NCBI GenBank assembly: GCA_008632985.1
Contig: QPGO01000082.1
Span: 248,001-312,000, forward strand
Length of the DNA stretch: 64,000 nucleotides
Direction: 5' to 3'
From: Psammoneis japonica
Taxonomy: Eukaryota
Below are positions 12,001 to 37,400 of this stretch, in pieces. The stretch's first letter is position 1. Each line of letters starts with the position of its first letter. The position numbers were made by a program, and so were the translations under genes. The notes beneath the pieces are model-generated. The model ran no database searches. It was given only the letters and a program-made list of their open reading frames with translations, and had not been told where the DNA came from.

Positions 12001-15000
12001 TGCCAATGGCCAAATCTCATGGCAGATCAGGAGGGAGAAACACCAACAGATCTTTTTTAGGACTCTTGTCTCACATGTTGAATGGCTGGAGTGCCTTCTG
12101 CCAAAAGCAAATTTGCTTCTTCTCTTGCCACAAAACTCAAGATCTTCAAGCTTCAGCAATCTCTCAGCTTTGCTTTTGAAGAGAAGACAATGTGATGAGG
12201 ACAAATTGAGCTTCCAAGCTTGACAAGAAGAGCTGCTGTGACTGTTGCCACTGTTTGGCCACTCTAACAAGTTGTCACATTGACTGAGCTGTTTGTTTGC
12301 CACTGTTTGTTTTGGTTTTTCCTTCATGGGAGTCAACTCTTTTACTCCAAGAAGAGCTGGAGTCATGTTGCACTCACTTGGTGATGGCAGCATGATGCTG
12401 ACAGTTTTGCCATGTTCCACCTTCAAGCCCAGTGTCACCTCCCCTTGAGGGCACTGAATGGCAGCCAATGAAAGTTGAGTTGTTTCTGGCTGTGCAATCT
12501 CAGCACTGACAGATGATGTAGAGGCATGCAATGTCATGGCAACAACAGCTCAGTTGAATGATGAAAAGAAGAGTGCAGCAACAATGAAGTGATCAAAGGT
12601 GCTGGTTTTTTTTCTGTGGTGCCCAGAGGGCAGCTTTGCACTCATTTTGTGCCAAATTCATGAAGAAACCTGCGTGCTTTTGTCATTTTTTGACTTGGTG
12701 CGGCAATTCTTGTGGAGGGGCAGAGCGGCTCCCTGTTTGGGTGCCAGGAGCTGAGCTGGGATGAGGGCATGTGTGGGACCCTTAGAGGCACATGTGAGTG
12801 GCTTTGACAACTGCGGTGCTCATGCTTGCATTTGCAAAACCACATGCTTCAGAGCATGGCTTCTGACACTTGTTCGCCAGAGCCATGCAGCTGTCAACCA
12901 GAGTGCTGCCTTGGCTTCTTTGCCAAGCAGCCCATCACATGAGATCATGAAAGGACTGAAATGATGCCATCACCCAAGGCAAGGCTCAAGATGCCTGCTG
13001 GTGGACTTTGGTGATTTTGCAAGAAAAATCAAGTGGACCCATTGCTTGCAGCTGCTGGATTTCCACCCAAGAATGCAGTGCAGTCTGTGCATCACTCCCA
13101 CCTGCCTCATGTCATTTCAGCAAAAAGTGCAATCAACCTGCTTTGCACAGGAGATTTCTTGAAGCACATGCAAGCACTTTTCAGGTGAGCAAAAGTGGGG
13201 CAAGTGGGCTTTGTTAAGAAAAAATGTTGGAACACCTGTGTCACGGGGACAGGGATTGCAAAGAACCTGGGCCCATTGAGGAAAAGATGCTTTGACTCCT
13301 GATGTGGTTGACTCAAGTGACTGGTCTCTGGCAGGGAATTTCCTCTGTCACCAACCCCTTGCCTCTGCTTTCACCTCCTTTTTTAGAGTGAGTAATTTGG
13401 TTTGTCACTTGACATGTTGTTCAGCATCACTGGTCAGCTGTTGTTGTCAATTTGTGAGTTTGTGGTTTGCACTGACAACCTCCAGGTGACATTGAACCAG
13501 AAAATTGATGTTGCCAAAAGGGGGCCCTGCTGAGCTTCCTGTGGCACTTGCCAGGTTGCCTGAAGTTGTCAGCACAAACTCCAAACTCAAAAATGACAAC
13601 AGCAGCAGTTGCCCAGCACAATGCACTGGGTGACAAATCAAATGAGCCAAGTGAGCCAAATGATTCACTCCAAAGTGTGAGATAAAAATGGTGATGAAAG
13701 GTTGGCAACAGAGAAAAATCTTCAGCAAACAGTGGCTTCACTTGGTTCACCACATTTTAGAGCCAAAGCATCTTTTCCTCAGAGGACCCAGGTTTCTTGT
13801 GGTCCCTGTGATCCAGATGTGCCCATCACACCCCTGCAGCTCACACCAGCATTTCTAAAATTGGGGAAAATGGTGCTGGGGAGAATCCCCTCTGGCGGTG
13901 TCGTGGCAACCAGATCAGCACCAGCAAAACCTGCTGTCATCTTGTCTCAGAGCACTGACACCCTCCAAACTACAGCACTGCAGGTTGGCACGTTGTCCCT
14001 CATCAGAAAAGTCAATTGTGTCATAGAACAAGATGGCTGCTCCTTGCACATTCTCCACAAAGCACCCAGCAAAGGTGCAACAGATCCTTTCAAATGGGGG
14101 TCTGCTCAGCGGAACACTGGGCAGCGTCTTGATCGAACCACTGGTTTTCAAGGGAGTCAAATCAGAGAGCTCTGCATTGTGACAAGTCCATCTCAAAATT
14201 GAGCTTGTTGCATTGATGTCACAGTTGAAGGTGAGGCTGGCTGTGCTGCCCAATTGCACCGTCCATGCTCCAAACAAGCCAATGATGACTCACATTGTTC
14301 TTGGGACCTTTGACATTGATCTTCACAAGGGGCCACAAACCCCACATGCATCCATGCCAAAGGTGGGGCAACTGCCTGACAACCATGTGCTCAATTGGCC
14401 AGCAACACTGCTGTTTGTGATGCTCAAGACACCCACCACAATGACAATGACAGCACAACATGCAGCACCATTGAGGCAACCGCCAACAATGTTGCCAGCA
14501 CAATGCTCAAGACAGCCACTGGCAACAATGCCTGCTCAGTGCTTAAAATGTCCACTGACAACATTGCTGGTGCAACAATGGAGAAACTGACTTGCAATGT
14601 TGCGCCAGTGTTGTGCTCATCCAAACCAACATTTGAGTTTGAGTTGATGCTTGCTGACTCCAAACTTCCTTGCACCAAGTTGGGGCATTGCTGCCAGGCT
14701 TGTCATGCAATGGCAAGCAGCTCAAGCTGGTCCACTGTGCACCCAATGGCACTGCTTTGAGTTGTCTGCCCTGTTGGTGCAGAGGTGAGCCCAACAAGGA
14801 AATGACAAATTGCAAACAACAAAAGCAATTGCAGCGGTGCTGCGGTGTGTTGTTTTTTGAAGTTGTGTCCAAAATCTGGTGTTTTTTGTATGGGTTTTTG
14901 TGCAATGGCTTTGGGGTCACCCAGAAATGGGGTCACTGCTTTGCTTGAGGAAGAGAAAGCAAGACATTTTTGTGTGACATTTTTTGCCCAAACAGCAATG

Positions 15001-16315
15001 CCTGCTTTGGCAAGAAATGTGCTGCATGTGCAAAATGGCACACACAAGACACGTGCAAGAAAAAATTCTGCAACCCCATGTGCAATGATTGCCATCTGTC
15101 ACTTGCTGCATGCCTTCTCTGCTGTTGCAGCTGATGCACTCTCCAGAGATGATCATGTTGTGCAATGCAAAACATGGGCCAATGAAGCGTTCACACAGCT
15201 CCTTGTTTGCACAGCTCCATTTTCACACAGATGTGCCAGTCTCGCAATTTCTGCAAAATGTCTTTCAACAACCTGCTGTGCCAGTTGCTTGACAATGTGC
15301 AAGAGGGTTGCAGTGCTGGTCTTCTGACTTGAGCTCCTCAGCAGCTTCAGAAAAAATTGCTGCACTGCATGATTTGAAGCAAAGTTGGTTTGTGATGACA
15401 CCAAACCATCTCATGGCAACAAGGCAGTTGAAACAGATTGACCCCTTGACATGCTCCAAAGATTCTTGGCTGCATGGCTTTCCCCTTCACTTGTGTGGCT
15501 GGGAGTGTGAAAATGGGCACAATGGCTGAGCTCTTGCAGCAGAACAAGGCATGACCTTCTGGGTCTTGGCATGTCAAAAAACAAGATCTGTTGTTGAAAA
15601 AGCCAAAAACAATGCTCAAACATTTGAGTGCTGCTGAGCCAACAGCAGGTTGGGAAACTGAAGAAACAAGAAGAACTTCAGAAAGATTCTTGTCAAGAAG
15701 CAGACAAAGTGCAAGTGCTTGATGCAGAAGAAGCCAAGGAGCACTCTGTGGCAGATGACAACAAAACAGGAGAAGAAGAGCCTCTTGGTTTTTGAACTTG
15801 GACAGCAGCCAGTCAACATCAAAGGCGCTGTTTGTGGGAACAGGCCATGTGCAATTTTAAAAGCAGGGCAGCACCCAGAAGCAGTCAAGGCTGTTCAGAG
15901 TCTAAAGCCCAGCAAAGCATGCAAGTTGCCACAAGAAAATGTTCTGCAATGTGCAGCACAGTGCAGGTTGTCAACAACTGGTGGTTGTTGTCCAGCCAGA
16001 CTCCCAAAGAAAGGCTCAGAAAACACTTCTTGTGCATTTTTCTTCCCTGCAAGGATTGCACTGCAGACAACATCAATGTGTCCACCAGCTGTGGTGCAGC
16101 TGGCAATCATCAACTTGTGTTTGCAGCTCAAATGAAGGGTTTTTGCAACACAGGGTTTCCTCCAAAAACTGTCACAGCTTTGAAGCATCGCCATCTGCAC
16201 AGAGAGAAGTGATTTGCAACAAACCCAGAAGTTGTGTTGTTGAAGATTTGATGGGCACAAAGCTGTTGCTTTGCTGTTTTTCACACAACCACTGCATTGT
16301 TGTTTGTGTCGGTTG
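9100..16315. mobile_element. Old degenerate transposon block, depleted of TpA and CpG
   Basis: Very few TA or CG, saturated with TG/CA; spurious Cys/His-rich ORFs in all six frames; contains a Copia gag relic. Confidence 0.75.
10100..11870 (-). pseudogene. Copia-type gag / zinc knuckle / protease relic
   Basis: Fragments ATCKDVKEKISRCTQKEFKQG, SLGNDACPKDLDRAMDALLNH, CHCCSKEDHKSPDC (CCHC knuckle), VLDNCS (protease-like) and ANILS, broken by frameshifts. Confidence 0.65.
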
Positions 16316-16694
16316 TGCAACATGCGTTGTTATGTACGTATTATATATGTATATCTATATATTAAAAAAAAGTATATTTCAATCGTACGTCAATCGTGGG
16401 TTCGTACGAAGTACAGATCGGTCACACAGAAGTGATCGGATGTCGAGAATCGCAAATGCGATCGTACGATGATGTTGACATCTTATGTGTCAATGTCAAT
16501 CGTATCCGGACAATCTGTTGTCACGATCATATTCTCCGAAAGGCCTTTTGTCTGTAGGAGCAGTACAAAAGGTTTAGGCCATTGAGAACCCATTCGGAGA
16601 AACCCAAAATGATTGCATGGAAATAATTCTCATAATTTTCACTTTTTATACTTGATTCTACTTTCGTTTATACTCGTTCTTCGAGCATAGTGCA
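16316..16694 (+). repeat. Gypsy 5' LTR
   Basis: Near-identical to 21113-21492; begins tgcaa and ends gtgca. Confidence 0.95.
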
Positions 16695-16730
16695 TTGTGT
16701 ATACACACCACAGAAGGTAATAAGTTCAAG

Positions 16731-17885
16731 ATGAAGCTTTCACCTCATGCAACCAACGCTAAAACTTCGTTAAGGCAGGAGAAAATCGTTCCTCAACCGC
16801 TGGAATCGAACTCCGAGCCGAAGAGCCTCAAACCGAGCCAGTGCCTCAAGATGGAGCAACGTTTTCATCCCGAGAAGAAGGATAGCCGTACCTACACCAT
16901 CAATGTCGAGCACTACAAGAAACAAGGTGTCCCCAAGTTTGTCGAATTTCTCAAGAGCTACGATCAACTTCCAGTGGGCCAGAATGTCAGGAAGCAATCT
17001 GACAAGTTTCGTCTCATGCGCATGTTACTCCAAGGAGACGCTCTACGTGCTTTCGAGAATGCGGCAGCGAACCTTGAAGACGAATCTGCAGAAGGAAGCT
17101 TCGAGAAATGCCTGCAACATCTCACGAGGCATGTGTTTCCCAAGAACGCACTTTCGGTGCAGAAACGTTATTTGCGTCGTGATCTCAAGAAGCCGGAGTC
17201 CATGAAAGTACGCGAAATTGCTGCTTGGGTCCAGGAAGTCAACGAAGACCTCAAGTTCTATCCTCCCTTTGGGAAGGAACAGAAGATCGAGGACGACGAG
17301 CTCAAGGACATCCTCTTCAATCTTGCACCTCAAAAGTGGCAGCGTCAGTCGACCGTCCAGGGTTTCGAAATTTTGAAACACACCTGTGACGAGTTGGTTG
17401 AGTTCTTGGAGCGCCCAGAGGTCGCAGAAGACATGTTCGATGGCATTCATGCCAAGGCTGATGGCAGTGGCGGTGCTGCATCAAAAGCCAAGAGTGGCTC
17501 CCAACGTGGTTCCAAAAATGGTCACCAACATGGTGCCGAAAAATCTCAGTCCGAGAAGTGGTGCATTTCATGTGAGAAATCCACTCACAACACGGACAAG
17601 TGCTGGTCGATCAAAAGACTTGCGAAAGAACGCCATGGGAACTGTGAACCCGACCCGAAACGGCGCCGTTCAAATGGCAATCGCACGTGGTCTCGTCGCG
17701 ACAACGACAACGCCGCTCGCAAAGAAGAGTTGAATGCTGTGGCGATCCAAGCAGTTCAAAAAATGCTCAAAGCGAGTTCCTCGAACAATGATGAAAAGCA
17801 CAAGAGCAAAGATTGTGATTCTGATGCCCTTGACGAGGAGAATGATCAGTTTGAAAAAATGATGCGCAGCGATTCTGAGGAATGA
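16731..17885 (+). CDS. gag: Gypsy gag
   Basis: LLQGDAL...VFPKNALSVQKRYLRR capsid-like region; CISCEKSTHNTDKC knuckle. Confidence 0.85.
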   Translation: MKLSPHATNAKTSLRQEKIVPQPLESNSEPKSLKPSQCLKMEQRFHPEKKDSRTYTINVEHYKKQGVPKFVEFLKSYDQLPVGQNVRKQSDKFRLMRMLLQGDALRAFENAAANLEDESAEGSFEKCLQHLTRHVFPKNALSVQKRYLRRDLKKPESMKVREIAAWVQEVNEDLKFYPPFGKEQKIEDDELKDILFNLAPQKWQRQSTVQGFEILKHTCDELVEFLERPEVAEDMFDGIHAKADGSGGAASKAKSGSQRGSKNGHQHGAEKSQSEKWCISCEKSTHNTDKCWSIKRLAKERHGNCEPDPKRRRSNGNRTWSRRDNDNAARKEELNAVAIQAVQKMLKASSSNNDEKHKSKDCDSDALDEENDQFEKMMRSDSEE

Positions 17886-20800
17886 CTTGCACCGCAAGAG
17901 GAGTCTTGCGCTCCACTGGACATCAGGAAGCCCAGAAAAAGGGCCAAAGTAATTTGTGCTAGTCCAGCAGTCGTCGCCCATGTGAACACTTCATCAGGCA
18001 AAGCGAAAAACAAGCCTCTGCACATTCTCCTCGATGGCAGAACATCGTCAACCACAATTTTGCGCAAATTCACGCGGAAACTCAGAACCAAAGCATCCGC
18101 CACCAAACTCTGGGAAACCAAAGGAGGGCTCTTTACGACTGACAGTCGATGTAAGATCCAATTCTCCTCACCCGAATTTGACAAACATGAGATGATCGAA
18201 ACAACGGCACATGTTGATGGCTCCCCTTCTTCTTCAAGTTGTTGTGACATGATCATGGGACGCGACTTAATGTCAAGTCTTGGGATGACATTGGACTTCT
18301 CGAATGAAGAGATTAAATGGGAAGATGCAACTGCTCCTGTGAAGAATGTTGATGCACTCTTCGATGCCGATGTTTTTAAGTTGATTGCCGATCATGTTGA
18401 GGAATCTCATGCAGTGATTGGTCTTAATGACAGGGTCAATCGGATCCTTGACTCAGACTGTCACACTGCAAACCTCAACAATGTGACTGCAGCAGCTGCT
18501 CATCTAACTCCTGAAGAGCAGAAGCAGCTGAACTTCCTCTCAAAAAGATTTGAAAACCTTTTCGATGGTTCTCTGGGCAAATGGACCAGGAAACCGGTGG
18601 ATTTGAAGTTGAAATCGGGCGTGAGTCCGTGTCATGCCAAACCATTTCCCGCACCACAAGCCTTGGAGGCGACCACTCGTAAGGAGGTTGAAAGACTGTG
18701 CAAGTTGAAAGTCTTAAGAAAAACAAACTGTTCTGAATGGGCGGCTCCAACCTTTGTTCAACCCAAGAAAAATGGCAGAGTTTGGTTCTTGTCCGACTTT
18801 CGTGAGCCAAACAAGAGGTCAATTCGCACTCCGTTTCCTCCACCCAACATTCAGGACATGCTGCAGAAGCTCGAAGGCTTCATGTGTGCAACGTCCCTAG
18901 ATTTAAACATGGGACACTGTCATGTCGAATTGACGCCGCGTGCACGTCGCTTGTGCACGATCGTCATGCCTTGGGGCAAATGTGAGCACTGTAGACTCCC
19001 GATGGGAATCTGTGGAGCTCCAGACATTTTCCAAGAGCACATGAGTGAGCTCATGGCAGGTCTGGAGTTCGTCAGAACTTGTGTTGACAACACATTGTGT
19101 CTTGCAAAAGGTGATTTTCAAGACCACCTCAAGAAGCTTGAAACAGTGTTCTTGCGCCCAGAACAAGCCGGATTGAAGGTCAACGCCGAGAAGTCCTTTT
19201 TTGCTAAACCCGAAGCAGACCATCCAGGCTTTCACATCACCCACAAGGGCATCAGTCCGATTCCAAAAAAAAGTAGAAGCGATTCACGCGATCGCAACTC
19301 CTAAAACTCGCAAGGAATTGCGACGCTTTGTCAGCATGATCAACTGCCATCGAGACATGTGGCCTCGACGATCTCATGTTTTAGCTCCTTTGGCCAAACT
19401 CACTTCTGCCCAAGTAAAGTGGCAATGGACCGAAACAGAACAAAAAGCCTTTGAAAACATGAAGCGCGTCATCTCCAAAGACACACCACCATCACACCCG
19501 AATTTTAACACACCCTTTGAGATGTGCACCGATGCTGGCAATTCTCAATTGGGGGCGGTTGTTGCTCAGAAAAACTGACCAATTGCCTTCTACAGCCGCA
19601 AGCTGAATGGAGCACAGACGCGTCACACTGCAACGGAAAAAGAGCTGTTGACCACAGTGGAAACGTTAAAAGAGTTCCGCAATGTGCTGTTTGGCCAACA
19701 GATGAACACATGTGCGGATCACAAAAATCTCACACACAAAAAATTTCACAACGGACAGAGTCATGCATTGGTGTCCAATGACAGAAGAATGCAGCCCCAA
19801 AATGACATGCCTTGAGGGCAAGGCAAATGTTGTCGCAGATGCGATTGGCCGACTTGCCATGAAGAAAATAGAACCTGTGGAAACCCTCAGCACAGAAGAG
19901 CTGGCTGAAAAGGTCCCACCAAAATCCTGCGACAATGTCTTTCCGTCAAATTACAAAGTTCTTGATTGTGAACAAAAACGGGACAAAGACACTCTCTCCC
20001 AATTGTCAAATGAGACGTTTCATGCGAAGACTTTTCGTGGAGGCGAGCGAGACCGGTTGCTCGTGTGTCATGAGGACAAAATTGTCGTCCCGAGGACGTT
20101 GCAAAGGCAGTGACAGATTGGCATCATGTGCACCTTCTTCACCCTGGCACAAATCGAACAGAAGAAACAATCTCACAACACCTGTGGTGGTCCACCTTGC
20201 GTGAAGACATACGAAAATACGTGTCGAGATGTGAGGCGTGCCAAAAATTCAAAAAGAAACACAAGAAATGTGGACATTTGCCTCCTGAGTGCGCAGAATC
20301 CGCACCATGGGAACGACTGTGTGTGGACCTTGTTGGGCCACACAAAATGCGTCGCAAGGGAAAGAAAGAACCCCCAGTCCTGAAATGTTTGACAATGATC
20401 GATCCAGCAACCGGATGGTTTGAAGTTGTGGAAATCCCAAATGAGGAGTCCATGACTGCAGCTGGACTGCCAGAACGAACATGGTCAAGCAGACATCCTT
20501 GGCCATCGTCAATTGCATGTGACGGTGGAAGTGAGTTCATCGGACACCAATTTAGAGAAATGGTGCAAGATGATTGTGGCATTAAAGTCAAGCCTGTAAC
20601 TACACGAAATCCACAAGCAAACGCAATTGTTGAACGCGCACATCAAGCACTGGGGAACATGCTCCGTACATTTGATTTGCAACATACACCTCTAGATGCT
20701 GAGGATCCTTTCGCTGGAATGCTGTCAGCGGTAGCATTGCGGTACGTTCTACGTATCATACCACTACGCAAGCTACACCAGGACAACTAGTCTTCAATAG

Positions 20801-21086
20801 AGACATGATATTTAACGTCCAACATGTCGCAGACTGGAAATTAATCCAGCAGCGAAAACAAGATATCATAAATAAAAATAACGCTCGAGAGAATGCTCGA
20901 CGTACTCCTTACACGTACAGAGTAGGAGAAAAGATACTACTCGAGAAAGACTCGCAAAAATTAGAACAGCCCTATGTTGGACCGTACGTAATAACAACGG
21001 TACATACTAATGGCACAGTACAGATCAAACGCGGTGACGTTATTGACACTGTCAATATTCGTCGGATAATACCGTTTAACGACTGA
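17886..21086 (+). pseudogene. pol: Gypsy pol (protease, RT, RNase H, integrase), hypermutated and frameshifted
   Basis: ILLDG protease; WAAPTF..PKKNG; SLDLNMGHCH; RLPMG; CVDN at 19080 in place of YVDD; TDA..QLG; HPG...C..C; CVDLVGP; NPQANAIVER; PYVGPY tail. Frameshifts in A-runs near 19265, 19575 and 19740. Confidence 0.9.
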
Positions 21087-21112
21087 CTCTAATGTGCAAT
21101 TAGGGAGGCGAA

Positions 21113-21492
21113 TGCAATATGCGTTGTTATGTACGTATTATATATGTATATCTATATATTAAAAAAAAAGTATATTTCAATCGTACGTCAATCGTGGGTT
21201 CGTACGAAGTACAGATCGGTCACACAGAAGTGATCGGATGTCGAGAATCGCAAATGCGATCGTACGATGATGTTGACATCTTATGTGTCAATATCAATCG
21301 TATCCGGACAATCTGTTGTCACGATCATATTCTCCGAAAGGCCTTTTGTCTGTAGGAGCAGTACAAAAGGTTTAGGCTATTGAGAACCCGTTCGGAGAAA
21401 CCCAAAATGATTGCACAGAAATGATTCTCATGATTTTCACTTTTTGTGCTTGATTCTACTTTCGTTTATACTCGTTCTTCGAGCATAGTGCA
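21113..21492 (+). repeat. Gypsy 3' LTR
   Basis: Matches 16316-16694 with about 10 transitions and one A-run indel. Confidence 0.95.
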
Positions 21493-24400
21493 GTTGGATG
21501 TTTGACTCTGGACACCACAATGTGTTCCCTGTGAAAAGTTTGGCATGTTGGAGAGCTGATGTTTGGGCGACACAAGATGAAGTGTCTTGCATGATGGACA
21601 ATCTGTCTCAAAAGGCTGTGTTTGTTTTCAAGCTTCATTTGTCAAAGTTGGTTGGAAGGATTTGAAAATGCAAAACATGCAACTTGTGAGCTGGCAGCAC
21701 ACTGACACACTCGGTTTGCACACAACTGTCTGGCACCAGCCCCACTTGCTCTGTCAAAGTCAGGTCCCAAACAATGTGCTTCATCATTGCTTTCTTCTTT
21801 GTGCTCCAATTCCATCAGTTGGTCATTGTGTGCTTTGTTGCCTGGAAAGTCTTTCACACAACCAGCAGCTTTGACCAAATGCTTTGTGCAAGTCTCTTGC
21901 TTGTGACACACTCTTTCTTTAATCTTGCGGCTGGCCTCTTCAAAGCAGGCTTCACATTGCTGCCACAACTGCCAAGCACCTTGTCAGGATTTTGCAGCAT
22001 TCTTAGATGCTCATCTGCTGCAAAGCTGTGCTTGCACAAGGCGACATTCTTTCCAAGAACAACCATGAGTGCCAACTCCAGTTTTGGTTCTTCCACACCA
22101 ACAACTTCAACAGCAAAGGAGCACAAGCTGGTCTTTGAGAAACACTCCAGCAGGTTTTCACATTCTTGCAGGGCACCTGTGAGTTTTGAGCTTGGTGCCT
22201 TTCTGTGCTTCTGGATTGAGAGATCAGCTGGGACAGTCAGCAGCACCCACGTCAAGTGCCTTGTGCTTTGGAAAAAATTGAGTGTTTTCTTTTGTTGTTG
22301 TTGTTGGGGCATGGTTGCTGGCACTTGGCATGCCCCAGTCTGCTGCTCAAGAGTGCTGGTGCAAAGCAAGGTGAGCACTTCTTACACTTGCCCAGGAGAA
22401 AGAAATGCACCCAATGTGGGATTTCTTGATTTGCTGCATTGGAGCAAATGGCAGTGAGGCCACAGCATCTTTTGGATGTTGGCAAAGAGTGCTGCCACAG
22501 CAGCAGCAACTCTGTCTTCAGCAACAGCCTCAAGCCAGAATTTCTGCACTTTTAACTGACACAAATGTTGGTGCTGAAACCCACTTGATGGCACTTGCAA
22601 GAAATCCACACTGGTGCAAACACAACACAGCTGCACATGCTGCGCTGGCTGTTGTTCATTTTCTGGTGCTGTGCCAGAGTCACACACCAAAACAAGGTGT
22701 CTCCAACCCTTGTTTGTGCATTTGGCATTTTCACAAACTCTAAATCATTGGCTTCAACTGGGCCACAATGTGTCATTGTGCAACTCTTGCTGTGCAGCCA
22801 CTTGCCCACTCAACTTTTTTCCATCTGCATCCAGTGTGGCAAAGATGGAGAGCAGGGGGCAACAACACCACACTGTTGCAATGGTGTTTCACCTCAGCAG
22901 CTTGCACACACACTGTTGTGCTCCCAAGAATCAGAGAATTTGAGGTGACTTCATGCTGTCATCTTCATCTGCAAGCAGCAATGGCAGTGCAAATGAAGCC
23001 ATGCCAACAATGGATTTCTTCCTCCCAAAGCAAGCAGGAGAAAAGAGCCCAAGTGTGGTTGGCATTGAGACAGACAGACAAGCCAGCAAAAATCAGAGCT
23101 GGTCAGTCCTGCTGCCTGTGACATGCTGTCAACGAGTTGTTGCATTGGGTGCTTGTGATGTGCACAGCTTTCTTTTCAACTCTGGCAACAAAAAACATGC
23201 ATCAACTGCATTTGAAAGAGTGCCAGAAGCAAGAATGCAGTTCTTTGTTGCAGCACAGAAGACAACCACAGCGGGTTGGACAGACATGGACACTTGGTGC
23301 CACTGGACTCTGCACCTTGGCTCACACCATTGGCTTGAGCACTGCATGGTCCTGGCAGTGTGCAGGGCAATGGGTGAAACAGGTGGATGAGCATGAGGAC
23401 CTCCTGGTTGCCTTGCACAAAGATGTGTTGTTTCACCTCACAATTCTCATGGGTTTGCATGGCACTGCACACTCCCTTTGCCTGTGCATCATTTTGGCAT
23501 GAACATCTGAGCCTTTGTCAGCTTTTTTCAGATGCTGCTGACTTTGGATGGAATTTCTTTTTTGCTCAGACAGGAAGAACACATCAGTGGCAGGCTGCCT
23601 CTGGTGCAGAACATCTCTTCACCAAACACAGCAATTTTCTCACTTGGGAAATCTGTGCTGAGAGTTGAACAAACATTGGCTGTCTCATTGAGAGAAATGA
23701 TTTTGACAAATTGTCACACTGTCACAGGTGCCCAGCTTGCAAGGGAAATGAAAAATGTGGAGACAACAGCAGCGCTGGGTTGGGCAAACAAAAGCTCACA
23801 CCCTGTGAGCAGCACACCACCTTTGCAGGTTTTTTTGACCCACTGACAGCTGCTGGAAGGCAAGGCAAGCTGTGAAGCTTGGCATCACAGCACTGCAATG
23901 ACAGGCACATTTTGAGGTTTGTGGAAGACATTTTCAAAGAGAAACCCAGAAGCATGCAGAAAGCAGTGTTCTGGAGCTTGGTGATGCAAAGAAAGCAGCA
24001 AATGAGTCTCCTTCAGGGACCACAATTTTGCCTGTTGCAGCTTCCACGGAGTGTGTGCACTGAAGATGTTGCAACTTGCTTCAAAAACAAATGCAAAGCA
24101 ATTGCAGGCATCACAGCAGTGGTTCCACACATTTCCTGATTTTTCAACATCACCATGCATCACCTTTTGACATTTCATTGAGAATCAACCAACCGTGGCT
24201 CCAAAGCATGTGGTGCTGGGATGGGAATCTAGCAAATGTGCTCTGGGAATGTCGACCATCTTGTTGTGGCAAATGATTTGACACATTGTTGTGCTGCCAT
24301 GAGTGGCCAGCTTTCCAGGAAAACAAAACATGTGGAAATGATGGATGCCGCTGGGGTGGGAAATGAAAGCTGACACCCTGCATGCAAGCAACACATCCAT

Positions 24401-26750
24401 GCACTGTTTCTTGCAGGTTTTTTTGACCTGCTGACAACAGCTTAAAGGCTGGACATGCTGTGGAGCTTGACAGTGTGATGCTGCTACAACAAACACATTT
24501 TGGCTTTTACAGAAGTTGTTTCTGAAGTTCAGAGAAGCATGTGAAAGCAACATCCTGGTGCTCAGTGTTGTGGGGAAATTGGCAAATGAATCTCCTTGAA
24601 AAACCCCATGACTTTGCCCACTGCAGTTTCTGGTTTGTGCACAGAACATGTTGCATCTCATTCCAAGAACATTCAAAGCCATTGCAGGTGCCATCGCCTG
24701 CCCCCCTGCATGTTCTGATTTTTCCACATTGCCAGGTGGCACCGCTTGATGTTTCATTAAGAGTCGCCTGACCATGGCTTCAAAATGTGATGGGACAGAA
24801 ATCTGACTCATGTGCTCTGGGAACACATCTCAGTGCTGCCGCAGAAAGCAAGGGTGCCATGGTCTCCAGCCTCTTTGCTATGGCATTGCTTCTTTTTGGC
24901 TCTCTCAGAGATCACCAAAAATGGCAATTGCTGTCTCAGATGAAGTGACATGGCAAAAGATCAATTCCACCCTCAACGCCATTTGCCACACCCTCTGACA
25001 TCTGGAGCAGCACATGGCAAACCTTTGAACAAATCTTGATTGACTTGCACACATGTTCTTCCAACACAATCCAAAGAGATGAAAGACATCAAAGGTTGCA
25101 GAGCTGAGAATCAGATGCAGAAGACCACCCAGAACCACAAAGCTGCTGTGGCGAGCAATGAAACATTGAAGAGTGTGACTTCTAAAGCCTCCACTCTGTT
25201 CTCACCTGCAAGATCCCTTGCCAAAAAGATTAGAAAGGTCGCTGGATGAAATTGTTGCATGAGAGCAGTGTGCGGAAGCTTTGGTTTGGGCACCCAACTG
25301 AAAGACCTGACAAGAGAAGAGCAAAAGGGAAACTCTCAACTTGCAAGAAATCCAAAAACTGGAGGCTGCACTTCCATGATGCAGCTGCACTGGGTTTGAG
25401 GATGAAGAACTGTCAAAAAACAGAAACAAGAGACCACCCCAAATCACACAGTTGCTGCAGTGAGACAAAAGACATGAAAGGTCACAGAGCTGAGAAACAG
25501 ACACAGAAGACCACCCAGGATCACAAAGTTGCTGTGGCGCACAATCAAATGTTGCAGAGTGTGACTTCCAAAGCCTCCGTTCTGTTCTCACCCATGAGAT
25601 TCCTTGCTAAAAAGATTGGAAAGGTTGCTGGGTGAAGTTGTTGCATGAGGATAGCACGCAGAAGCTTTCAATTTGGGCACCCAATTGAATGACCTGACAA
25701 GAGGGGAGCAAAAGGGAAACTCTTGACTTGCAAGAAATCTAAAGCTGAAAGGTTGCACTCCCTTGATGCAGCTGTGTTGGGTTTGACGATGAAGAGCAGC
25801 TGTCAAGAAACAGACACAGGAGACCACCCTGAATGATCACACAGTTGCTGCGGCAAGCAATGAAATGTTGAAGAGCACGCAACGGCCTTCAAGGCCTCTG
25901 CATTGTTCTTGCCTGTAAGATCCCTGGCTAAAAAGATCAGTGGGACAGTTGAGTGAAATTTTTGCATGAGAGTGGTGCACGAAAGCTTTCAGTCAGGGTG
26001 TCTGACTGGACGACCCAACAAGAGGGGAGCAAAAGAGAACTCTCGACATGCAAAAACCCAAAACAAAATGACGGGAATCCTGTGATGCAGCTGCAGTGGG
26101 TCAAGGATGAAAAGAGCACTTCTTGTGTGGACAGTTGCAGAAAAAGCACAGCACTTGACAGAGCAGATGGACTCCTCCAGTCTGTGGGATGTTGCTGGGT
26201 GCCAAGAACACACCACAGAAAATGAGGCACATCACTTGGCCAAGGCCGAAAGGCAAATTGACAGGACATCACTGGGTGGTCAACTCGGGACAGCTGATGG
26301 GCTGATTGAAGACCTGCAGAAGGCTCCTGAAAAGCACATCCCTTGGCTTTGCGGATGATCAAGGCAATGGGCATTGCCAGGTGTCAATCACAGGACAGCT
26401 GATCAGCTTGTCAATGGCACCACAGAGCTCAAGGTGCAGCCAATGAAAAGGGGTTGCCAAAAAATGCTGTGTCCAAGTGTGGACATTCCATTGGCTCTTT
26501 ATGTGGAAGTGGCTGATGTCAGTGATGGAGTTGGATCGGATTCGGATTCAGCGCAACAGTGGGAGCACTTTGATTCGGACTTGGTGCAGTGGTGCAAGAG
26601 GCAGAGCAGGTGAGCCAATGGCCGATTCGAATTGGTGAGCAGGAGATGGTGTCGGATTGACTGTGCAGCAGGATCGGGCTTGGCACGCTGTCGCCATGTC
26701 CCTCCAATGAACCCTCATCAAATTGATGGTTGCTGTGTGGGACAAGAGAG
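21493..26750. mobile_element. Continuation of the old TpA/CpG-depleted repeat block
   Basis: Same TG/CA-saturated composition as 9100-16315; no family assignable by eye. Confidence 0.65.
25085..26110 (+). repeat. Degenerate tandem repeat, about 3 copies of 320-390 bp
   Basis: Recurring agaccaccc, aaaaagat, ttgcatgag and gagcaaaag.gaa.ctct blocks near 25085, 25471 and 25810. Confidence 0.75.
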
Positions 26751-27622
26751 CTCAAGGTGCAGCCAACGAAAAGGGATTGCTAAAAAAATGCTACGTCCAA
26801 GTGTGGACATTCCCTTGGCTCTCTCTGTCCCAAGCAGAAGTGGCTAATATCGGTGATGGAGTTGGATCGGATTCGGATTCGGCGTAGTAGTGGGAGGACT
26901 TGGATTCGGACTCGGTACAGCAGTGCAAGAGGTGGAGCAGATGGGCCAAGCCGATTCGGAATTGGTGAGTAGGGAACGGTGTCGGGTTGTTTGTGTGGCA
27001 GGATCGGGCTCAGTACGCTGTTGCCAGATCCAACCAATAAACCCTCATCAAATTAAGTGTTGCTGTGTGGGACAAGAGAGCTCAAGGTGCAGCCAACGAA
27101 AAGGGATTGCTAAAAAAATGCTACGTCCAAGTGTGGACATTCCCTTGGCTCTCTCTGTCCCAAGCAGAAGTGGCTAATGTCGGTGATGGAGTTGGATCGG
27201 ATTCGGATTCGGCGTAGTAGTGGGAGGACTAGATTCGGACTCGGTACAGCAGTGCAAGAGGTGGAGCAGATGGGCCAAGCCGATTCGGAATTGGTGAGTA
27301 GGGAACGGTGTCGGGTTGTTTGTGTGGTAGGATCGGGCTCAGTACGCTGTTGCCAGATCCAACCAATAAACCCTCATCAAATTAAGGGTTGCTGTGTGGG
27401 ACAAGAGAGCTCAAGGTGCAGCCAACGAAAAGGGATTGCTAAAAAAATGCTACGTCCAAGTGTGGACATTCCCTTGGCTCTCTCTGTCCCAAGCAGAAGT
27501 GGCTAATGTCGGTGATGGAGTTGGATCGGATTCGGATTCGGTGTAGTAGTGGGAGGACTTGGATTCGGACTCAGTACAATAGTGCGAGAGGCGGAGCAGG
27601 TGGGCCAAGCCGATTCGGAATT
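26428..27622 (+). repeat. Tandem array of ~330 bp, about 3.6 copies (starts 26428, 26751, 27081, 27410)
   Basis: ctcaaggtgcagccaa...gtgtggacattcc...ggagttggatcggattcggattc repeated at 323, 330 and 329 bp spacing. Confidence 0.95.
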
Positions 27623-27695
27623 GATGTAGGATATAGTGTAGATACTTTTTTGGGCCCCAGGGTTGACGGAGCCATTGGATCGGTGTAGTTTTAGG

Positions 27696-28326
27696 CGACG
27701 GGGTCCCTTTCAAACTTTGACAACGACAACAAGAGCAAAACACGCGTCAGTCTTTACCAAAAACTTCACTTTTTTATACTCACAAATTTGGAATTTACGT
27801 ACATCGATCGAGTGTGCAGTTATTGGCTACAACGGAGCTGCGTTTGGACTAGAGCTCGGCGCTGGGCTGCTACTTGGAGTCGTACTGGGCGTATCACTCG
27901 GTGCGGGACTACGACGGGGTCCCTTTCAAACTTTGACAACGACAACAAGAGCGAAACACGCGTCAGTCTTTACCAAAAACTTCACATTTTTATACTCACA
28001 AATTTGGAATTTACGTACATTGAGTGTGCAGTTATTGGCTACAACGGAGCTGCGTTTGGACTAGAGCTCGGCGCTGGGCTGCTACTTGGAGTCGTACTGG
28101 GCGTATCACTTGGTGCGGGACTACGACGGGGTCCCTTTCAAACTTTGACAACGACAACAAGAGCGAAACACGCGTCAGTCTTTACCAAAAACTTTACTTT
28201 TTTTATGCTCACAATTTTGGAATTTACGTACATCGAGTGTTCAGTTGTTAGCTACAACGGAGCTGCATTTGGACTAGAGCTCGGCGCTGGGCTGCTACTT
28301 GGAGTCGTACTGGGCGTATCACTCGA
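27696..28326 (+). repeat. Tandem array of 212-216 bp, 3 copies (27696, 27912, 28124)
   Basis: cgacggggtccctttcaaactttgacaacgacaacaagagc...ctgggcgtatcact repeated nearly exactly. Confidence 0.95.
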
Positions 28327-30018
28327 GCAGGACTACGACTCGGTTGTCGTGTCGTGTCGTGTGAGTCGGTACATCATTCTGAGCGGGACTCGCTCTCGGT
28401 GGATGGAAAGGCATTGGCGTTAGAGCACTGTGCTCCAAGCTGGGAGCAGGGGTTATGCTCGGTGTTCTGTTTGGAGCTTCACTCGGAGCAGGACAGCTTG
28501 ATGGATTGTCCATTGTCGACAACTACAATCGCACGGTCGCCGCCTATAATTGTGGCGAAGTTCTGAGCAGTTTCAGTTTTGGTTTTTGAAAACTGGCTCG
28601 CTCGCCGAAAAAAGAGAAACAGCGATGCGCTGCGAAACTTATTCAGCACTGTATGTACAGAAGAGAACATAGCACAGGATCAATGATGAAATAAGATATC
28701 TAGATGTTAAATGTGAATTTATTTTTCGTATGTATCATGTTGAATGAAATATAAATTATGTTGCTCTAGAATATATACATAAGTATTAGTTTTCAAAGAG
28801 CCCGCTGTCTCGGATCTGGAAGCCCGGAAGCCACTCGATTTCGAAGCTCTGAAAATGGCTGGCTGCTGGCTGGGTCGCCTGTCGCCTGCCTCCATGTCGC
28901 CTGTCGCCAACCGCCGACGATGGTGACCTTGAGCAAGTAATCGTTTGCTCCAAACCTTCATTAGCTTTCGTACACCCACTGCACTTTGTTTCGCGTGCTA
29001 TGCGGAATTCAGCCTCACGCTCTTGAATCAAAATTTTTGCCTTTTCGTTTCTATTCCCACAATGATATGATGTTGCCGGGCTGGCAATGGCAACTAGCGT
29101 GCAAAAATAATGACCCTCGTCGTGCCGACAGCCGACAGTATATTGTGACAACGACCATCAAATTGGTGTTAATGTCTAGTCTGGTCTGCTCCATGGGCAA
29201 TGCGGTGCTGTAGATGGCTAGAGTTGTCGTGGTGAATTCGTCTTGGACGTTTGAACTCACAATGTTTCCGTGGCGGACGTTGCAACGAGACTACACATTG
29301 TCTATCCACCATGTTTCGTGAAGGGTTATCAAGACCAGGGTGGAGACTGGAGTTCATCGTTGTGTTTGTGGAAATAAGAATGCCAAGTTGGTTCTTTTGC
29401 TGTCAGTTGTCGTGAGGACGGTGAGGAGGAAGAGAGCGTTGAAAGACGTGGGACGTGGCCAGTCACTTGACCTTTGCCGATTCCATTTACATTTGTTCTC
29501 AGCCGGCCATACTAAGGAGGCTAACACAAACAGAGCGAAGGTACGAATGATATTATTGAACAAGGGGGGAGATAGATTTCAACCAAAGCAAGTGGTTTGC
29601 TGTTCTGGGTGTTCGCTTGTTGTTTCGTAAGGTTTTCACTCGTACGCAGCTATGCTCACAAACTGTACTTATAGCTCAAATCTTTTCTCGTTTCAGAATA
29701 GATACTTTCCCAAAAATAATGGCGCTCTACTTACACGCATTCAATTTTGCACGCAACGCCTTCTCGTGATGTCATTTTTGTGATCTAAATTGGCTATTTT
29801 GTGGTGCCCGCTTTTAGCTACGGTACCGTACAGTGGTTTGCTCAACTACGACGTCCGACCAGCAAAAAGATGGCGCTGCTTTGCTCCTCCTGTTGCTCTA
29901 GATTCTTCTCTAGCTAGAGCTAGCTAGTCAAAATACCGGTATAATTTATACTATTCCAATTTATTTTCTTGTGTAGTGAAAACGATGTCGTTGCAATAGT
30001 CGTAGGATTCGAACACAT

Positions 30019-34459: not shown

Positions 34460-37400
34460 GGGGCCGCAAGGGATGGCTGGCATTGTCTTCGCCGTTGAGG
34501 CAGAACAACCACGGCAGGTGATTTCCTCCCTTTCCCACGTCACTTTTAGTTTCACACTCATGCTTGCCATTGTTGTTGCTGTTTGTTCTGTGACATTCGA
34601 GTCACATGCATGGGGTTTGTTTCTCTTTTGTTTTGGCATCAGCCAACACACGTTGCATTGTCATCTCTTGCATTGCCATTTGTTGCTCAGTGCATTTCAT
34701 GCGATGCCTTGGCATTGCGTGCTGGCGAACATCATCTGTCTTTTCATTGTTTGCTTGTTGCATCAGAGTTCTTTTGGAACACGCCATTGAAGCCATGGCA
34801 GCATCACTTTTTTCTCTTGTTGAGGCTTTGGCACAGATGCCAAAGGAGTGGTGAGGGTGTGCACAGAGCAGCTGGCTGCAGTGGCCTTGGTCATCAAGCA
34901 GAGTCAGCAAAAGGGTTTTGTGCTGTCTCCAAGAGTCCACAACAGCTTGAGATGAAATCAGGCCACCAGTTGCCCTTTTTTGTTCTTGATGCGCTGTTGA
35001 TCAACCCACCTGTAAAATGTGACAAAACACAGAAAAAGAGAGCTGATCAGAATGTTTTGGCTTGCCAAAAAGAAGTGTGTGGGCAGGATGCATGATGCGT
35101 GCATTGGCACTGACACAACTGCACAGGGACTTCGACTCGAAACTTGTGATCCTCTTCCCAATGCCTTTTAATTTGCGAATGACAAAAATGATTGTCAGCA
35201 CTGATGCAAAAACTGGCACTCTTCTGCACATGAATGTCCCATCAATGGCACTTGACGGCTTCTTGAGCTCCCAGTGGGATGGCTTGCAAGTGTGCATTGC
35301 CTTGCACATGTGTGATGAAGAGCACATTGGCAAACAAGTGTGACATGCTCTGAGGCACCAAGCAGTCTCCACGCCATGGATTTGCTTGAACTTGAGCAGG
35401 CATTTGAACATGTGGCTCCAATGCAGACACCACTCAGTGCCAAGAAGCAAATCTGGTTTTGCCTCACGTTCTGGCAATGGAGTCTTTCTGCTGTGCATTT
35501 CTTGTCACATTGCTGGGTCTGCACCAATTCTCCATCTTCACAAAAGGAGTGCATTGTGTGACTGCCAGAATCCATTGTGGGATGTGCCAACAAGGCATGA
35601 GCATCACATTTTGTAAGGAGCACAAGGCAACTTGTTGGTTGCTTGTAGTCTGAAGATGACTGTTCCCTGCTGAAAAGCCAAAACAAGTGCCGTGACTAGC
35701 AATGGTTGGCTGGGGGCACATGCAATGCAAAAAAGATGCTGCAACACAACAGAGCAACAGTTCTGTGCTGCAATCCAACCTGTTTGTTCAACACCCCACC
35801 AGTTCTGTCAGTGGGATGCCAAAAATGATGTGACACAACTTCTGTCGATGCAACAAGCCAGTGAGAAACCACAATCAAAAACAAAACAAGAAACCTGCCC
35901 AAGCCATCACAATGTGCCTCACTGTGTTAAAAATCACACCGCATGGGGTGCAGAGGCATGCTTGCTGTTGTCCATGTCCATCATGCCCACACCACAAAAA
36001 CAACCATGATTTCACACTAAAAAGCATGAAAAAGCAGGATGACAAGTGAGGGTTAGCTGAGGGGGATCACAACACATGAAAAACAACACTCAAATGCAAC
36101 AAAATAATGACATTGTGTTGCATGCACGTCCACACTGCTCTAAAATCCATCACACATGTTCTTGTGCCAAAGCTTGTCTCTCTCCATTGTTTGTGCAAAA
36201 CCAGACTTGACTGCCATCTGATCAGGTGCATTTGCTGCAAATGTGTTGATCTGAAAAATGCCTGATCAGATGTCAGTTAATTGTGCATTTTTCACAAAGA
36301 CAGAATTTGCTGTGAAAGACTGACAGATGGTTTGACCTTTGTCTTGGTGGTGCCAGTCTCCACAGCTTTTTCGATTGTGATTGCTCTGCAGCATGAAAGA
36401 CAGCTGCTGAGTCTGAAGGTTCTGGCACTCAAATCAATGTGCCATTTGCACAGCTGTCCCTCAGCCCAATGGCAGCAGTGGGGGCTTGCCCCAGTCTCCA
36501 TCCTTTGGCAGGTCTGCAAGGTCCAAGCTCCTCACACCACAATGACAAAGAGACAGTTGAGAGCAAGCAACAGAGGCTTCACCATGAGTCTGCACAATGG
36601 CTGTTCTGGCAAGGGCTGTGTGTGCACTTGAAGATTGTGTGGCAACATCCACGCTCACAGCCGAGTGATGGCTGCACCTGGAGAGCACACCCACTGACAA
36701 CTGTGCAGAAAATCCCACCACCAGTGCTCCACAGTTGAGCCTCTGCACAACAATCACCTGCTTTGCATGCTGCTCAGTGTGCAGAGCTCCAAGAAGCATC
36801 TGACCTGGAGCTCCAGAGCAGAGCAGGTCTGCTGGGTGTTCGGTCGAGACCTCTGGTGTCTCAGTGGGACAGAGTGCAAGCAGAGTGCTTCTGTGTGCTG
36901 ATGTGCAGTGGCAAGAGAGCTTGGTCAAAAGTCCTTCACAAAGCTGCTGGTGACAAAATTGTGAGCTGCCCAGATTGTGAATTTGGCAAATGGCACAAAT
37001 GGCCAATTTTGTGAGCACTTGCATTGGCAGCCAGTGCACTCTCCTCATGGGCAACCACACTGTTGCTGAAGCAACAGACAAATGTTCCAAGAACATGCTC
37101 TGTGCTTTTAAATCCTCAATGGCTTCACAGTGATCAGCTTGCTGACAGGGTCAATGTGGCTCAAAAAGAAACACAAAAAGAGCTCTGATGGGCAGAGGCA
37201 CAGACACATGTGGACAGACTGGGTTTCTGGGCAGATGACCCATGACTCTCCCTCTGGTGAAAAACTTTGAGAGGTGGGAGGTTCTCTCTGAGAACTTGGG
37301 GGCACACTTGGAATTGCAGCAGCTGGGGCACTCCTCTTCCTCAAAGGCAAGTCCAGGGCTGCTGAGGGTTCAGCAGGAGCAAGACTCCAGCCAGGCCCAG

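Follow-up and report, generated by a model that had tools for sequence, protein, structure and literature searches.

A TpA-erased tract ends at the first junction of a tandem array in Psammoneis japonica, where position separates mutated from spared copies

One question that this locus raises is how a single unit of a tandem array could lose its TA dinucleotides while the units next to it keep theirs. In the window (the whole stretch of DNA that was analysed, 64,000 nucleotides of Psammoneis japonica), the repeats at 26424-27623 were called by Tandem Repeats Finder as one array with a period of 329 bp, 3.7 copies and 91% matches. For alignment the array was cut into the four units listed in Table 1, the last of them partial, and unit 1 was compared with the majority of units 2-4 over 321 aligned columns. 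Self-comparison of the window found no copy of the 329-bp unit beyond the array.

Unit 1 differs from this majority by 46 substitutions, and the alignment also contains indels and transversions between unit 1 and units 2-4. All 10 TA dinucleotides of units 2-4 are altered in unit 1, each by one transition (five T>C, giving CA, and five A>G, giving TG). CGs are altered to TG or CA in six of 15 cases, an excess that is not significant when taken alone (p = 0.13), and the remaining columns are altered in 30 of 273 cases, eight of these columns forming four swaps between CA and TG. A Fisher test of TA columns against other columns gives p = 2.9e-5, and when the 46 differences were placed randomly all 10 TA sites were struck in none of 200,000 permutations (maximum 9). 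Counted directly, unit 1 has 1 TA where 18.4 are expected from its base composition, as compared with 11 (19.4 expected) in unit 2, 12 (19.2) in unit 3 and 7 (12.6) in unit 4. Units 2 and 3 are 98.8% identical, have 10 TAs in common and differ by four substitutions, three of which exchange TA with CA or TG; unit 1 is 85% identical to them. The original prediction, that the first copy differs from the next three at TA sites and at some CpGs, is borne out by the alignment. The eight TA changes that it listed are all present, together with two that it did not list (gcgTAgTAg in units 2-4, gcgCAaCAg in unit 1), and the enrichment of TA sites among the differences, on which it had staked itself beforehand, is what the test and the permutations found.

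The position at which the erasure stops can be read closely. The last converted TA lies at 26724-26725 and the first kept TA at 26781, and therefore the border that had been placed near 26750 is correct within ~55 bp. The CGs of unit 1 are lost in three of three cases up to 26520 and kept in nine of 12 from 26537, so that the CG-free core ends ~230 bp within the TA-free zone. The TA-free zone extends past the CG-free zone at each of the six free borders in the window; the five other than the junction of units 1 and 2 have the same nested offset, and none of them is located in a repeat. Unit 1 forms the outermost ~320 bp of a 12.5-kb TA/CG-free domain (about 9100-26746), which is interrupted by a younger LTR retrotransposon and contains, in its right half, decayed tandem arrays at 23695-24823 and 25076-26111 and no Pfam-recognisable ORF.

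Seven depleted tracts were found in the window, four of them TA/CG-free domains and three depleted in TA only. In the four domains the observed/expected ratio (o/e) is 0.05 for TA, 0.11-0.15 for CG, 1.80-1.99 for CA and 1.83-1.87 for TG, and the three TA-only tracts retain CG at 0.81-0.86; in the ordinary parts of the window TA stands at 0.55-0.61 and CG at 0.95-1.05. As for mobile origin, an LTR retrotransposon was recognised in two of the TA-only tracts. In the four TA/CG-free domains and the remaining 2-kb TA-only tract, none of 109 ORFs of at least 90 amino acids matches Pfam at E<=0.01, and a search of the domains with purine/pyrimidine-recoded exact words and recoded BLAST gave nothing above the null of reversed and complemented controls. 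The window as a whole gave no Rfam matches and no tRNAs, and no RNA data set is listed as carrying 22000-30000.

Table 1. Coordinates of the array units, borders, depleted tracts and retrotransposons in the window
Feature	Position	Strand	Remarks
Left half of large TA/CG-free domain	9100..16315	.	TA border 9092/9175; CG fades out by ~9500
Younger LTR retrotransposon inserted into domain	16316..21492	+	LTRs 16316-16694 and 21113-21492; ends TG..CA; flanking duplication GTTG
Right half of large TA/CG-free domain	21493..26746	.	TA o/e 0.05, CG 0.15, CA 1.80, TG 1.85
Unit 1, mutated copy	26424..26746	.	1 TA (18.4 expected); 10 TA sites to CA/TG; 6/15 CGs lost
Inner border of CpG loss	26520..26537	.	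CG sites of unit 1: 3/3 lost up to 26520, 9/12 kept from 26537
Outer border of TA loss	26725..26781	.	Last converted TA site to first kept TA; includes junction of units 1 and 2
Unit 2, spared	26747..27076	.	11 TA, 15 CG; TA density as in ordinary parts of window
Unit 3, spared	27077..27405	.	12 TA, 15 CG
Unit 4, spared partial copy, 218 bp	27406..27623	.	7 TA, 11 CG
212-bp tandem array, unmutated neighbour	27696..28339	.	3 copies, 94-98% identical
Further TA/CG-free domain	34548..39021	.	Nested borders as in large domain
Further TA/CG-free domain	41914..45153	.	Nested borders as in large domain
TA-only depleted 2-kb tract	49489..51425	.	TA o/e 0.08, CG 0.84
TA-only depleted zone with Copia element	53750..62212	-	Copia 54461-61579, 1899-aa ORF, RVT_2; flanks ~700 bp left, 630 bp right

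Is it position or repeat status that marks a copy for erasure? Only unit 1 adjoins a 5-kb TA-free tract, and it alone lost all of its TAs, as expected if one sequence is erased or left intact depending on where it lies. Repeat-induced point mutation (RIP), a mutational genome defence of Neurospora and other fungi, depends on duplication and, like the process described here, leaves mobile DNA riddled with transitions at one dinucleotide and with a skewed dinucleotide signature. Here, in contrast to RIP, tandem units of near identity escape and the one diverged unit is struck by position: units 2 and 3 keep their TAs, and so does the neighbouring 212-bp array, with 10-12 TAs retained per pair of copies. 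Repeat identity is not the trigger, in agreement with the original prediction, and since the nearly identical units 2-4 are spared the process is not RIP-like. We also considered that time rather than position separates the copies and rejected this, because unit 1 and the lineage of units 2-4 have by definition had the same time since they split.

Another question is whether TA was lost in unit 1 or gained in its neighbours. The Copia element of the window allows the direction of change to be followed at 41 alignment columns in which Tyr is present in 80% or more of 40 Copia homologues. At these columns the window element has Cys (TGY) in 26, His (CAY) in 6, Tyr in 6 and Phe in 3, whereas conserved residues of other types are each retained in 79-100% of their columns; Tyr makes up 0.5% of the element as against 2.9-5.0% in 120 of 120 homologues among the matches listed. 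The LTR pair of the same element differs by 19 transitions and one transversion, which include five swaps, six CG-type changes and one TA-type change. As judged from this outgroup comparison, the direction of change is TA to TG or CA, with TA as the ancestral state. This is the reverse of RIP, which makes TpA from CpA by C>T and so raises TpA; the present process destroys TpA and has erased it. Selection for a functional sequence free of TA and CG was also considered and was rejected in view of the replacement of conserved Tyr and of LTRs that diverge at TA sites.

For unit 1 itself the polarity rests on context and on the other elements of the window, because an outgroup copy of the 329-bp unit is lacking. 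It could then be argued that copy 1 is ancestral and that units 2-4 gained their TAs by RIP-like C>T changes at CpA/TpG before amplification, given that RIP in fungi does yield TpA from CpA and that, with the TAs common to units 2-4, parsimony within the array cannot polarise the change on its own. Such an origin is very improbable. The TA density of units 2-4 (11-12 per full unit, 19 expected) matches the ordinary window and shows no excess, the ancestor would need to have lacked TA, as the adjoining 5 kb does, nearly identical repeats show no mutation of this kind, and the four swaps between CA and TG need a TA- or CG-losing step either way. The Copia comparison, by which TA is ancestral in this genome, and the divergence of LTR pairs both support the loss of TA in copy 1, as had been predicted.

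The younger LTR retrotransposon inside the large domain shows both that the process acts after insertion and that its history is not simple. Its LTRs are 97% identical and differ by 10 substitutions, all of them transitions: seven exchange TA with CA or TG, two form one swap between CA and TG, and one is of CG type, which amounts to ~9 TA events among ~70 TA site-copies and one other substitution. Nearly all differences within the two LTR pairs of the window are at sites derived from TA or CG. Within the younger element the loss of TA is confined to the core (17050-20550) and CG is at a normal level, and the LTRs remain TA-rich, with o/e about 0.9. LTRs inserted in the old domain that are still TA-rich imply that this domain may be a fossil and not currently active; alternatively, the element may have been copied from a source that was already mutated, which would account for its TA-poor interior. 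These LTRs, and the very sharp border (<=55 bp) at the junction of units 1 and 2, complicate a simple picture of a standing domain.

The same observations could be taken to mean that the junction is a recombination or rearrangement joint, in which the tract of unit 1 was hypermutated earlier and acquired its unmutated neighbours later, through unequal crossing-over, gene conversion among units 2-4 or amplification of a spared unit. A border this narrow that includes the junction would fit such a joint, as would the youth of units 2-4, seen in the identity of units 2 and 3 and the greater distance of unit 1, and a domain whose inserted LTRs are TA-rich need not be active now. Yet the spared source unit must already have lain beside unit 1, so that a position effect is still required, and the nested offset, with CG loss ending ~230 bp inside TA loss, matches the five other borders and would not be reproduced by a joint. 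Evidence of continued activity comes from an independent deep run, X1 (word depth about 140-250; library type not on record), that was assembled from k-mers. Its contigs span 30 of 30 bins of 16700-26790 and are likewise TA/CG-poor. Their divergence from the window is about 2% (14 of 661 letters in one comparison, 18 of 932 in another), with transitions at 227 of 255 changed places. Nothing was placed from two other runs, X2 and X3. Among 31 classified events, six are swaps between CA and TG, three have TA in X1 and CA or TG in the window, and eight exchange CG with CA or TG. The X1 contigs, allelic or from another strain, resolve some sites of the domain independently, and activity therefore continued after the copies diverged. 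We consider a joint unlikely, and position in the chromosome is retained as the explanation for the fate of unit 1.

The X1 contigs also bear on whether the depletion is an artefact of sequencing or assembly. Long-read basecallers miscall methylated bases as transitions, and if TA and CG carry modified bases where DNA is silent, these might in this way have been read systematically as their transition partners. However, the k-mer assembly is also without TA and CG in the domain and carries alternative CA and TG states; miscalls on both strands should leave a mixture in which TA and CG are still present, which is not what a TA o/e of 0.05 or the existence of CG-normal, TA-free tracts indicates; and the indels and transversions of unit 1, like the divergence of the LTRs, fit real evolution. 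An artefact is extremely improbable.

Editing at the RNA or cDNA stage by an ADAR- or APOBEC-like enzyme, inherited through retrotransposition, is a further alternative. APOBEC3 and ADAR leave deaminase-type transition clusters in mobile elements, as seen here, retrotransposons make up two of the three TA-only tracts, and the LTR element is depleted in its interior when its LTRs are not. The Discussion of a recent preprint (Mettrop et al. 2026, bioRxiv 10.64898/2026.01.13.699255) also notes that ADARs favour a U preceding the A that is edited. These enzymes act on cDNA or RNA, and their changes are strand-asymmetric and would be limited to reverse-transcribed sequence. In contrast, both strands are struck equally here, CA/(CA+TG) being 0.47-0.53 in seven of seven depleted tracts, and DNA that was not retrocopied is struck as well: unit 1, the flanks of the Copia element, whose ends are overrun by the TA-free zone by about 630-700 bp, and LTR pairs that were identical at insertion and later diverged at TA sites. 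Editing of this kind could have a part in making the interior of the LTR element 16316..21492 poor in TA; as an account of the signature as a whole it is hardly credible.

The second layer of the pattern, the loss of CG, has a familiar counterpart. Methylated transposons lose CpG by deamination of 5-methylcytosine, as in vertebrates, and transposon methylation is reported in diatoms. The old domains show a CG-to-TG/CA change in their cores that tails off gradually at the edges and resembles this decay: CG o/e falls to 0.11-0.15 with CA and TG doubled, and unit 1 has lost six of its 15 CGs, three of three in the inner 100 bp. Such decay accounts for the CG half only, since the loss of TA extends further out and is separable from it, as is seen in the three tracts that lost TA and kept CG.

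The process that erases TA is real, acts in place and on both strands alike, and depends on chromosomal position. The reading that fits these data, to which we give a probability of roughly 0.8, is that unit 1 is the outer edge of a tract in which TA-directed transitions ran to completion in place, starting in silenced DNA. The change would be from TpA to TpG or CpA, which is A>G whichever strand is read, and the preferred A would be that of 5'-TAY-3'. It would start in silenced mobile or foreign DNA and then extend a few hundred bases beyond, and a slower decay of CpG to TpG or CpA, most simply by deamination of methylated cytosine, would follow in a core ending 50-400 bp further inward. Unit 1 would lie within the spreading margin and units 2-4 outside it, and with this arrangement the same sequence would be erased or spared by position. 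The positional cue is probably a spreading silent-chromatin state, and the chemistry may be enzymatic adenine deamination on double-stranded DNA, by analogy with what has been proposed for Bigelowiella natans; modification of T in RTA fits the same data equally well.

In the literature that we searched no report of TpA-directed hypermutation in diatoms was found, and the signature is in print only for B. natans, in the 2026 preprint. PMC9258296 was considered and set aside, as its one passage on the subject concerns immunoglobulin hypermutation. In the preprint (Mettrop et al. 2026, bioRxiv 10.64898/2026.01.13.699255), mutation-accumulation lines of B. natans carried 231 mutations in two integrated viral regions, of which 230 are A>G or T>C, all at TpA; TpA-poor genes are enriched in reverse-transcriptase and DDE domains; and an ADAT2-like deaminase is proposed, not shown. 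The signature is identical to ours, TpA to TpG/CpA on either strand, and in both cases kb-scale regions show TpA depletion coupled to a gain of CpA and TpG; these are of foreign or mobile origin in B. natans and include two LTR retrotransposons here. In our window this change is found at 10 of 10 TA sites of unit 1, in 32 of 41 Tyr columns (as Cys or His) and in nine of 10 substitutions between the LTRs of the younger retrotransposon. The systems differ in host, which is here probably a diatom (Stramenopila) and there a chlorarachniophyte (Rhizaria), and in extent, erasure being nearly complete here (TA o/e 0.05) as against a Rho of 0.45 in the giant-virus region of B. natans. The placement as a diatom comes from the named hits of one protein; an ornithine cyclodeaminase and a CWC22-like protein were uninformative as to taxon. 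The rate in B. natans was measured directly; here the evidence is indirect, ~9 TA events against one other substitution between LTRs that were identical at insertion. Relative to the main text of the preprint, as far as it was available, the preference for a 3' pyrimidine, the sharpness of the borders, the extension into flanks and the internal control of the repeat array are new, and so is the nested erasure of CpG, a word that occurs 0 times in the preprint text seen.

The finding goes beyond the preprint in the occurrence of the signature in a probable diatom, in nested CpG loss, TAY preference and sharp borders; the same signature is present in a probably unrelated lineage, where it has gone to its end point. 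The array amounts to a natural experiment: of four adjacent copies one is erased and three are intact, which parts position from sequence and from repeat status. Its border, pinned to ~55 bp, offers an exact locus for probing the mark of the domain (methylation, histone marks, small RNAs), and the residual TA sites of unit 2 together with the young LTRs are places where fresh mutations could be scored. Any candidate enzyme is constrained by the preference for TAY and by the nested loss of CpG. Taken jointly, and tentatively, for we hold it somewhat less probable than an even chance, diatoms, like B. natans, may possess a mutational genome defence that is guided by silent chromatin and has two layers. 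The first would be directed at adenine in double-stranded DNA (5'-TAY-3'), nucleate in mobile DNA, spread 0.2-0.7 kb beyond it and erase TA completely; the second would be the slower CpG decay in the core. If this is true, such a system would be of long standing and common across the SAR clade, and genome sequence alone would suffice to read sharp fossil maps of where heterochromatin once lay.

The 329-bp tandem array at 26424-27623 (3.7 copies and 91% matches in Tandem Repeats Finder) was cut at the conserved start of the repeat into four units, u1 to u4, which were then aligned. Sequence identity is 98.8% between u2 and u3 and ~85% between u1 and either of them. Compared with the u2-u4 majority, u1 carries 46 substitutions in 321 aligned columns. 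None of the ten consensus TA dinucleotides survives in u1, where one transition apiece has turned five into CA and the other five into TG; the eight sites listed in the original prediction are all correct and the alignment adds two. Among the other columns 30 of 273 differ (Fisher p = 2.9e-5 for TA columns against these), eight of which form four swaps, meaning CA in one copy and TG in the other. In 200,000 trials with the 46 differences scattered randomly, at most nine of the ten TA sites were struck, never all of them. The predicted TA enrichment over the overall divergence of u1 is thus confirmed, well beyond chance. CpG changes had also been claimed, and 6 of 15 CGs are indeed altered to TG or CA, but this excess taken alone is not significant (p = 0.13). 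Only one TA is left in u1 against 18.4 expected from base composition, while u2, u3 and u4 hold 11, 12 and 7 (expected 19.4, 19.2 and 12.6), which is the level of ordinary window sequence. A border had been placed near 26750, in agreement with the final converted TA site of u1 at 26724-26725 and the earliest retained TA beyond it at 26781. The CGs of u1 are all lost in its inner 100 bp (3/3) and mostly retained further out (9/12). Between the spared u2 and u3 (26747-27405), three of four substitutions are TA<>CA/TG differences; outside the border there may still be weak activity of the process, or simply ordinary YpR-biased transitions.

A 500-bp dinucleotide scan, together with observed/expected (o/e) ratios per tract, divides the window into three interspersed classes of sequence: TA/CG-free, TA-only depleted and ordinary. 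The first two TA/CG-free tracts are a single domain, interrupted by an LTR retrotransposon at 16316-21492, and u1 is the outer end of this domain. The 329-bp repeat is therefore mutated or spared by its position, as predicted, with u2-u4 intact beyond the border. Repetition is not the trigger, again as proposed, since the near-identical u2-u4 and the 212-bp array that follows them are intact. In the 212-bp array most transitions between units are of TA and CG type, and four different tandem arrays lie side by side at 23.7-28.3 kb. The ordinary parts contain genes for actin, armadillo-repeat proteins, a CWC22-like protein and ornithine cyclodeaminase; the only organism-named relatives of the 838-aa armadillo protein are from the pennate diatoms Seminavis, Nitzschia and Pseudo-nitzschia (28-40% identity, none near 100%). 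The DNA is eukaryotic, and by this one protein its source is probably a diatom rather than Bigelowiella natans. The TA/CG-free tracts are enriched in the dinucleotide GC (o/e 1.30-1.34, ordinary sequence 0.97-1.09) and poor in AT (0.75-0.85), possibly as a by-product of GTA>GCA and TAC>TGC conversions. The 2-kb TA-free, CG-normal tract at 49489-51425 matches no other part of the window as a repeat, and none of its ORFs is recognised by Pfam.

Features of the window, with o/e ratios of tracts and TA and CG limits of borders
Feature	Position	Strand	TA	CG	Remarks
TA/CG-free tracts	~9100-16315, 21493-26746, 34548-39021, 41914-45153		o/e 0.05	o/e 0.11-0.15	CA o/e 1.80-1.99, TG 1.83-1.87
TA-only depleted tracts	17050-20550, 49489-51425, 53750-62212		o/e 0.08-0.14	o/e 0.81-0.86	CA o/e 1.26-1.53, TG 1.39-1.61
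Ordinary sequence	rest of window		o/e 0.55-0.61	o/e 0.95-1.05	CA o/e 1.09-1.27, TG 1.07-1.19
u1	26424-26746				mutated copy
u2	26747-27076				spared copy
u3	27077-27405				spared copy
u4	27406-27623				spared copy, partial
212-bp tandem array	27696-28339				follows 329-bp array
Tandem array inside large domain	23695-24823				period ~576 bp
Tandem array inside large domain	25076-26111				period ~386 bp
Copia element	54461-61579	-			1899-aa open frame, reverse-transcriptase domain
Copia 1899-aa frame	54693-60392	-
Large domain, left end			limit 9092/9175	limit ~9325-9512
Border at array			limit 26725-26781	limit 26520/26537
Border 34.5 kb			limit 34455/34547	limit ~34782
Border 39.0 kb			limit 39022	limit 38973
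Border 41.9 kb			limit 41913	limit ~42029-42302
Border 45.2 kb			limit 45154	limit ~44748-45053

The 329-bp array alone is unable to polarise the change because u2-u4 share their states; the Copia frame, the LTR pairs and the decayed repeats inside the domains do polarise it. The Copia frame was aligned with 40 homologues of 58-70% identity; Tyr in 80% or more of these defined a conserved-Tyr column. Of the 41 conserved-Tyr columns, the window copy retains Tyr in 6; 26 now read Cys (TGY), 6 His (CAY) and 3 Phe, and the other conserved residue types are each retained in 79-100% of their own columns. All 120 listed homologues contain 2.9-5.0% Tyr and 0.7-1.4% Cys, against 0.5% and 3.6% in the window copy. 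TA is therefore ancestral and TG/CA derived, which backs the direction of change that the original prediction assumed for u1. The Copia LTR pair differs by 19 transitions and one transversion, including 5 swaps, 6 CG-type, 1 TA-type and 2 other changes; no target-site duplication was recognised at 54461-61579. The Copia frame remains open despite ~32 conserved Tyr positions turned to Cys or His, and in the TA-free DNA of the window several long ORFs overlap on both strands. TA>TG/CA makes no in-frame stop from sense codons and clears every frame of TAA and TAG, and long ORFs in such DNA are therefore uninformative and no sign of function. The two arrays inside the large domain have decayed to 69-83% identity, largely by transitions and swaps. 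In decayed repeats inside domains swaps occur at 10/62, 30/98 and 10/55 aligned CA/TG sites, against 3/31, 5/29 and 1/21 for the mirror control AC<>GT, an excess expected if copies resolved one ancestral TA or CG independently.

The domain was also compared with contigs from a public sequencing run, X1 (library type not on record), in which 57% of the words sampled from 22000-30000 occur; two other runs, X2 and X3, yielded nothing. With a minimum likeness of 90%, the X1 contigs cover 30 of 30 bins of 16700-26790, and word depth in the unique domain is ~140-250. About 2% of their letters differ from the window (e.g., 14/661 and 18/932), and 227 of the 255 changed places are transitions. Event classes rest on 40 listed places of the 255, giving 31 events: 6 swaps, 3 where X1 has TA and the window CA/TG, 5 where X1 has TG/CA and the window CG, 3 where X1 has CG and the window CA, and 14 others. 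The independent assembly is therefore as TA/CG-poor as the window, with some sites resolved the other way, which fits two alleles or strains that have undergone real and recent mutation independently of each other. Base miscalling as the source of the TA/CG loss does not fit these data.

The process is strand-symmetric, with CA/(CA+TG) of 0.47-0.53 across all seven depleted tracts. Relative to the TA density of ordinary sequence, TA survival in TA-only and TA/CG-free tracts, respectively, is 7% and 0.7% for RTAY, 15% and 6% for YTAY, 31% and 12.5% for RTAR, and 66% and 51% for YTAR (R, purine; Y, pyrimidine); the surviving TAs are mostly YTAR. On either strand the A of 5'-TAY-3' appears to be preferred as the target, and the prevalence of Cys over His at the Copia Tyr codons is consistent with this rule. 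It is a preference only, as even the three YTAR sites of u1 are converted.

Wherever a TA/CG-free domain has a free edge, its TA loss extends outward beyond its CG loss, by ~50-400 bp. TA-free zones also reach beyond the Copia LTR ends, ~700 bp to the left (53750-54460) and ~630 bp to the right (61580-62212), ending just short of the flanking actin and ornithine cyclodeaminase genes. The nested borders and the Copia flank zones are consistent with nucleation of the process in mobile DNA followed by spreading, and it is here that the domain idea of the original prediction has its best support; for the position-dependence itself we infer a chromatin basis. A simple standing domain is opposed by the array border, which spans at most 55 bp and falls on the junction of two units. 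This same narrowness and coincidence could suggest that the border is a recombination joint mimicking a targeting boundary, an explanation we consider improbable because a joint would not reproduce the nested CG/TA offset. Also against a simple standing domain is the retrotransposon inserted in the old domain (LTRs 97% identical, TG..CA ends, flanking GTTG duplication), in which TA depletion is limited to a 3.5-kb core (17050-20550) and the LTRs are TA-rich. The two LTRs of one element are identical at insertion. This pair (16316/21113) now differs by 10 substitutions, all transitions (seven TA<>CA/TG, one swap, one CG-type), with 27 TAs still common to both; by this pair and the Copia pair, the change therefore occurs on chromosomal DNA after insertion. 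The element is high-copy in X1 (summed word depth ~6000 in the interior and 31,000 in one LTR bin, against ~140-250 for the unique domain), and its core may have been mutated where it stands or copied from an already mutated source element.

In mutation-accumulation lines of Bigelowiella natans, 231 of 302 nuclear mutations fell inside two integrated viral regions, all but one of those in these regions being A>G or T>C, invariably at TpA; 124 TpA-poor, CpA+TpG-rich clusters were found genome-wide and an ADAT2-like deaminase was proposed (10.64898/2026.01.13.699255). The window shows such TpA-directed hypermutation in a host from a new lineage, probably the diatoms. Our literature search found no diatom report of it, and the signature is in print once, in this 2026 preprint. 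In its text, CpG, tandem repeats and boundaries are never mentioned and a TAY context rule is not stated (10.64898/2026.01.13.699255). Beyond the printed description, the window offers near-complete erasure, a nested core of CpG loss, a TAY preference and, at the array, borders sharp enough for study.
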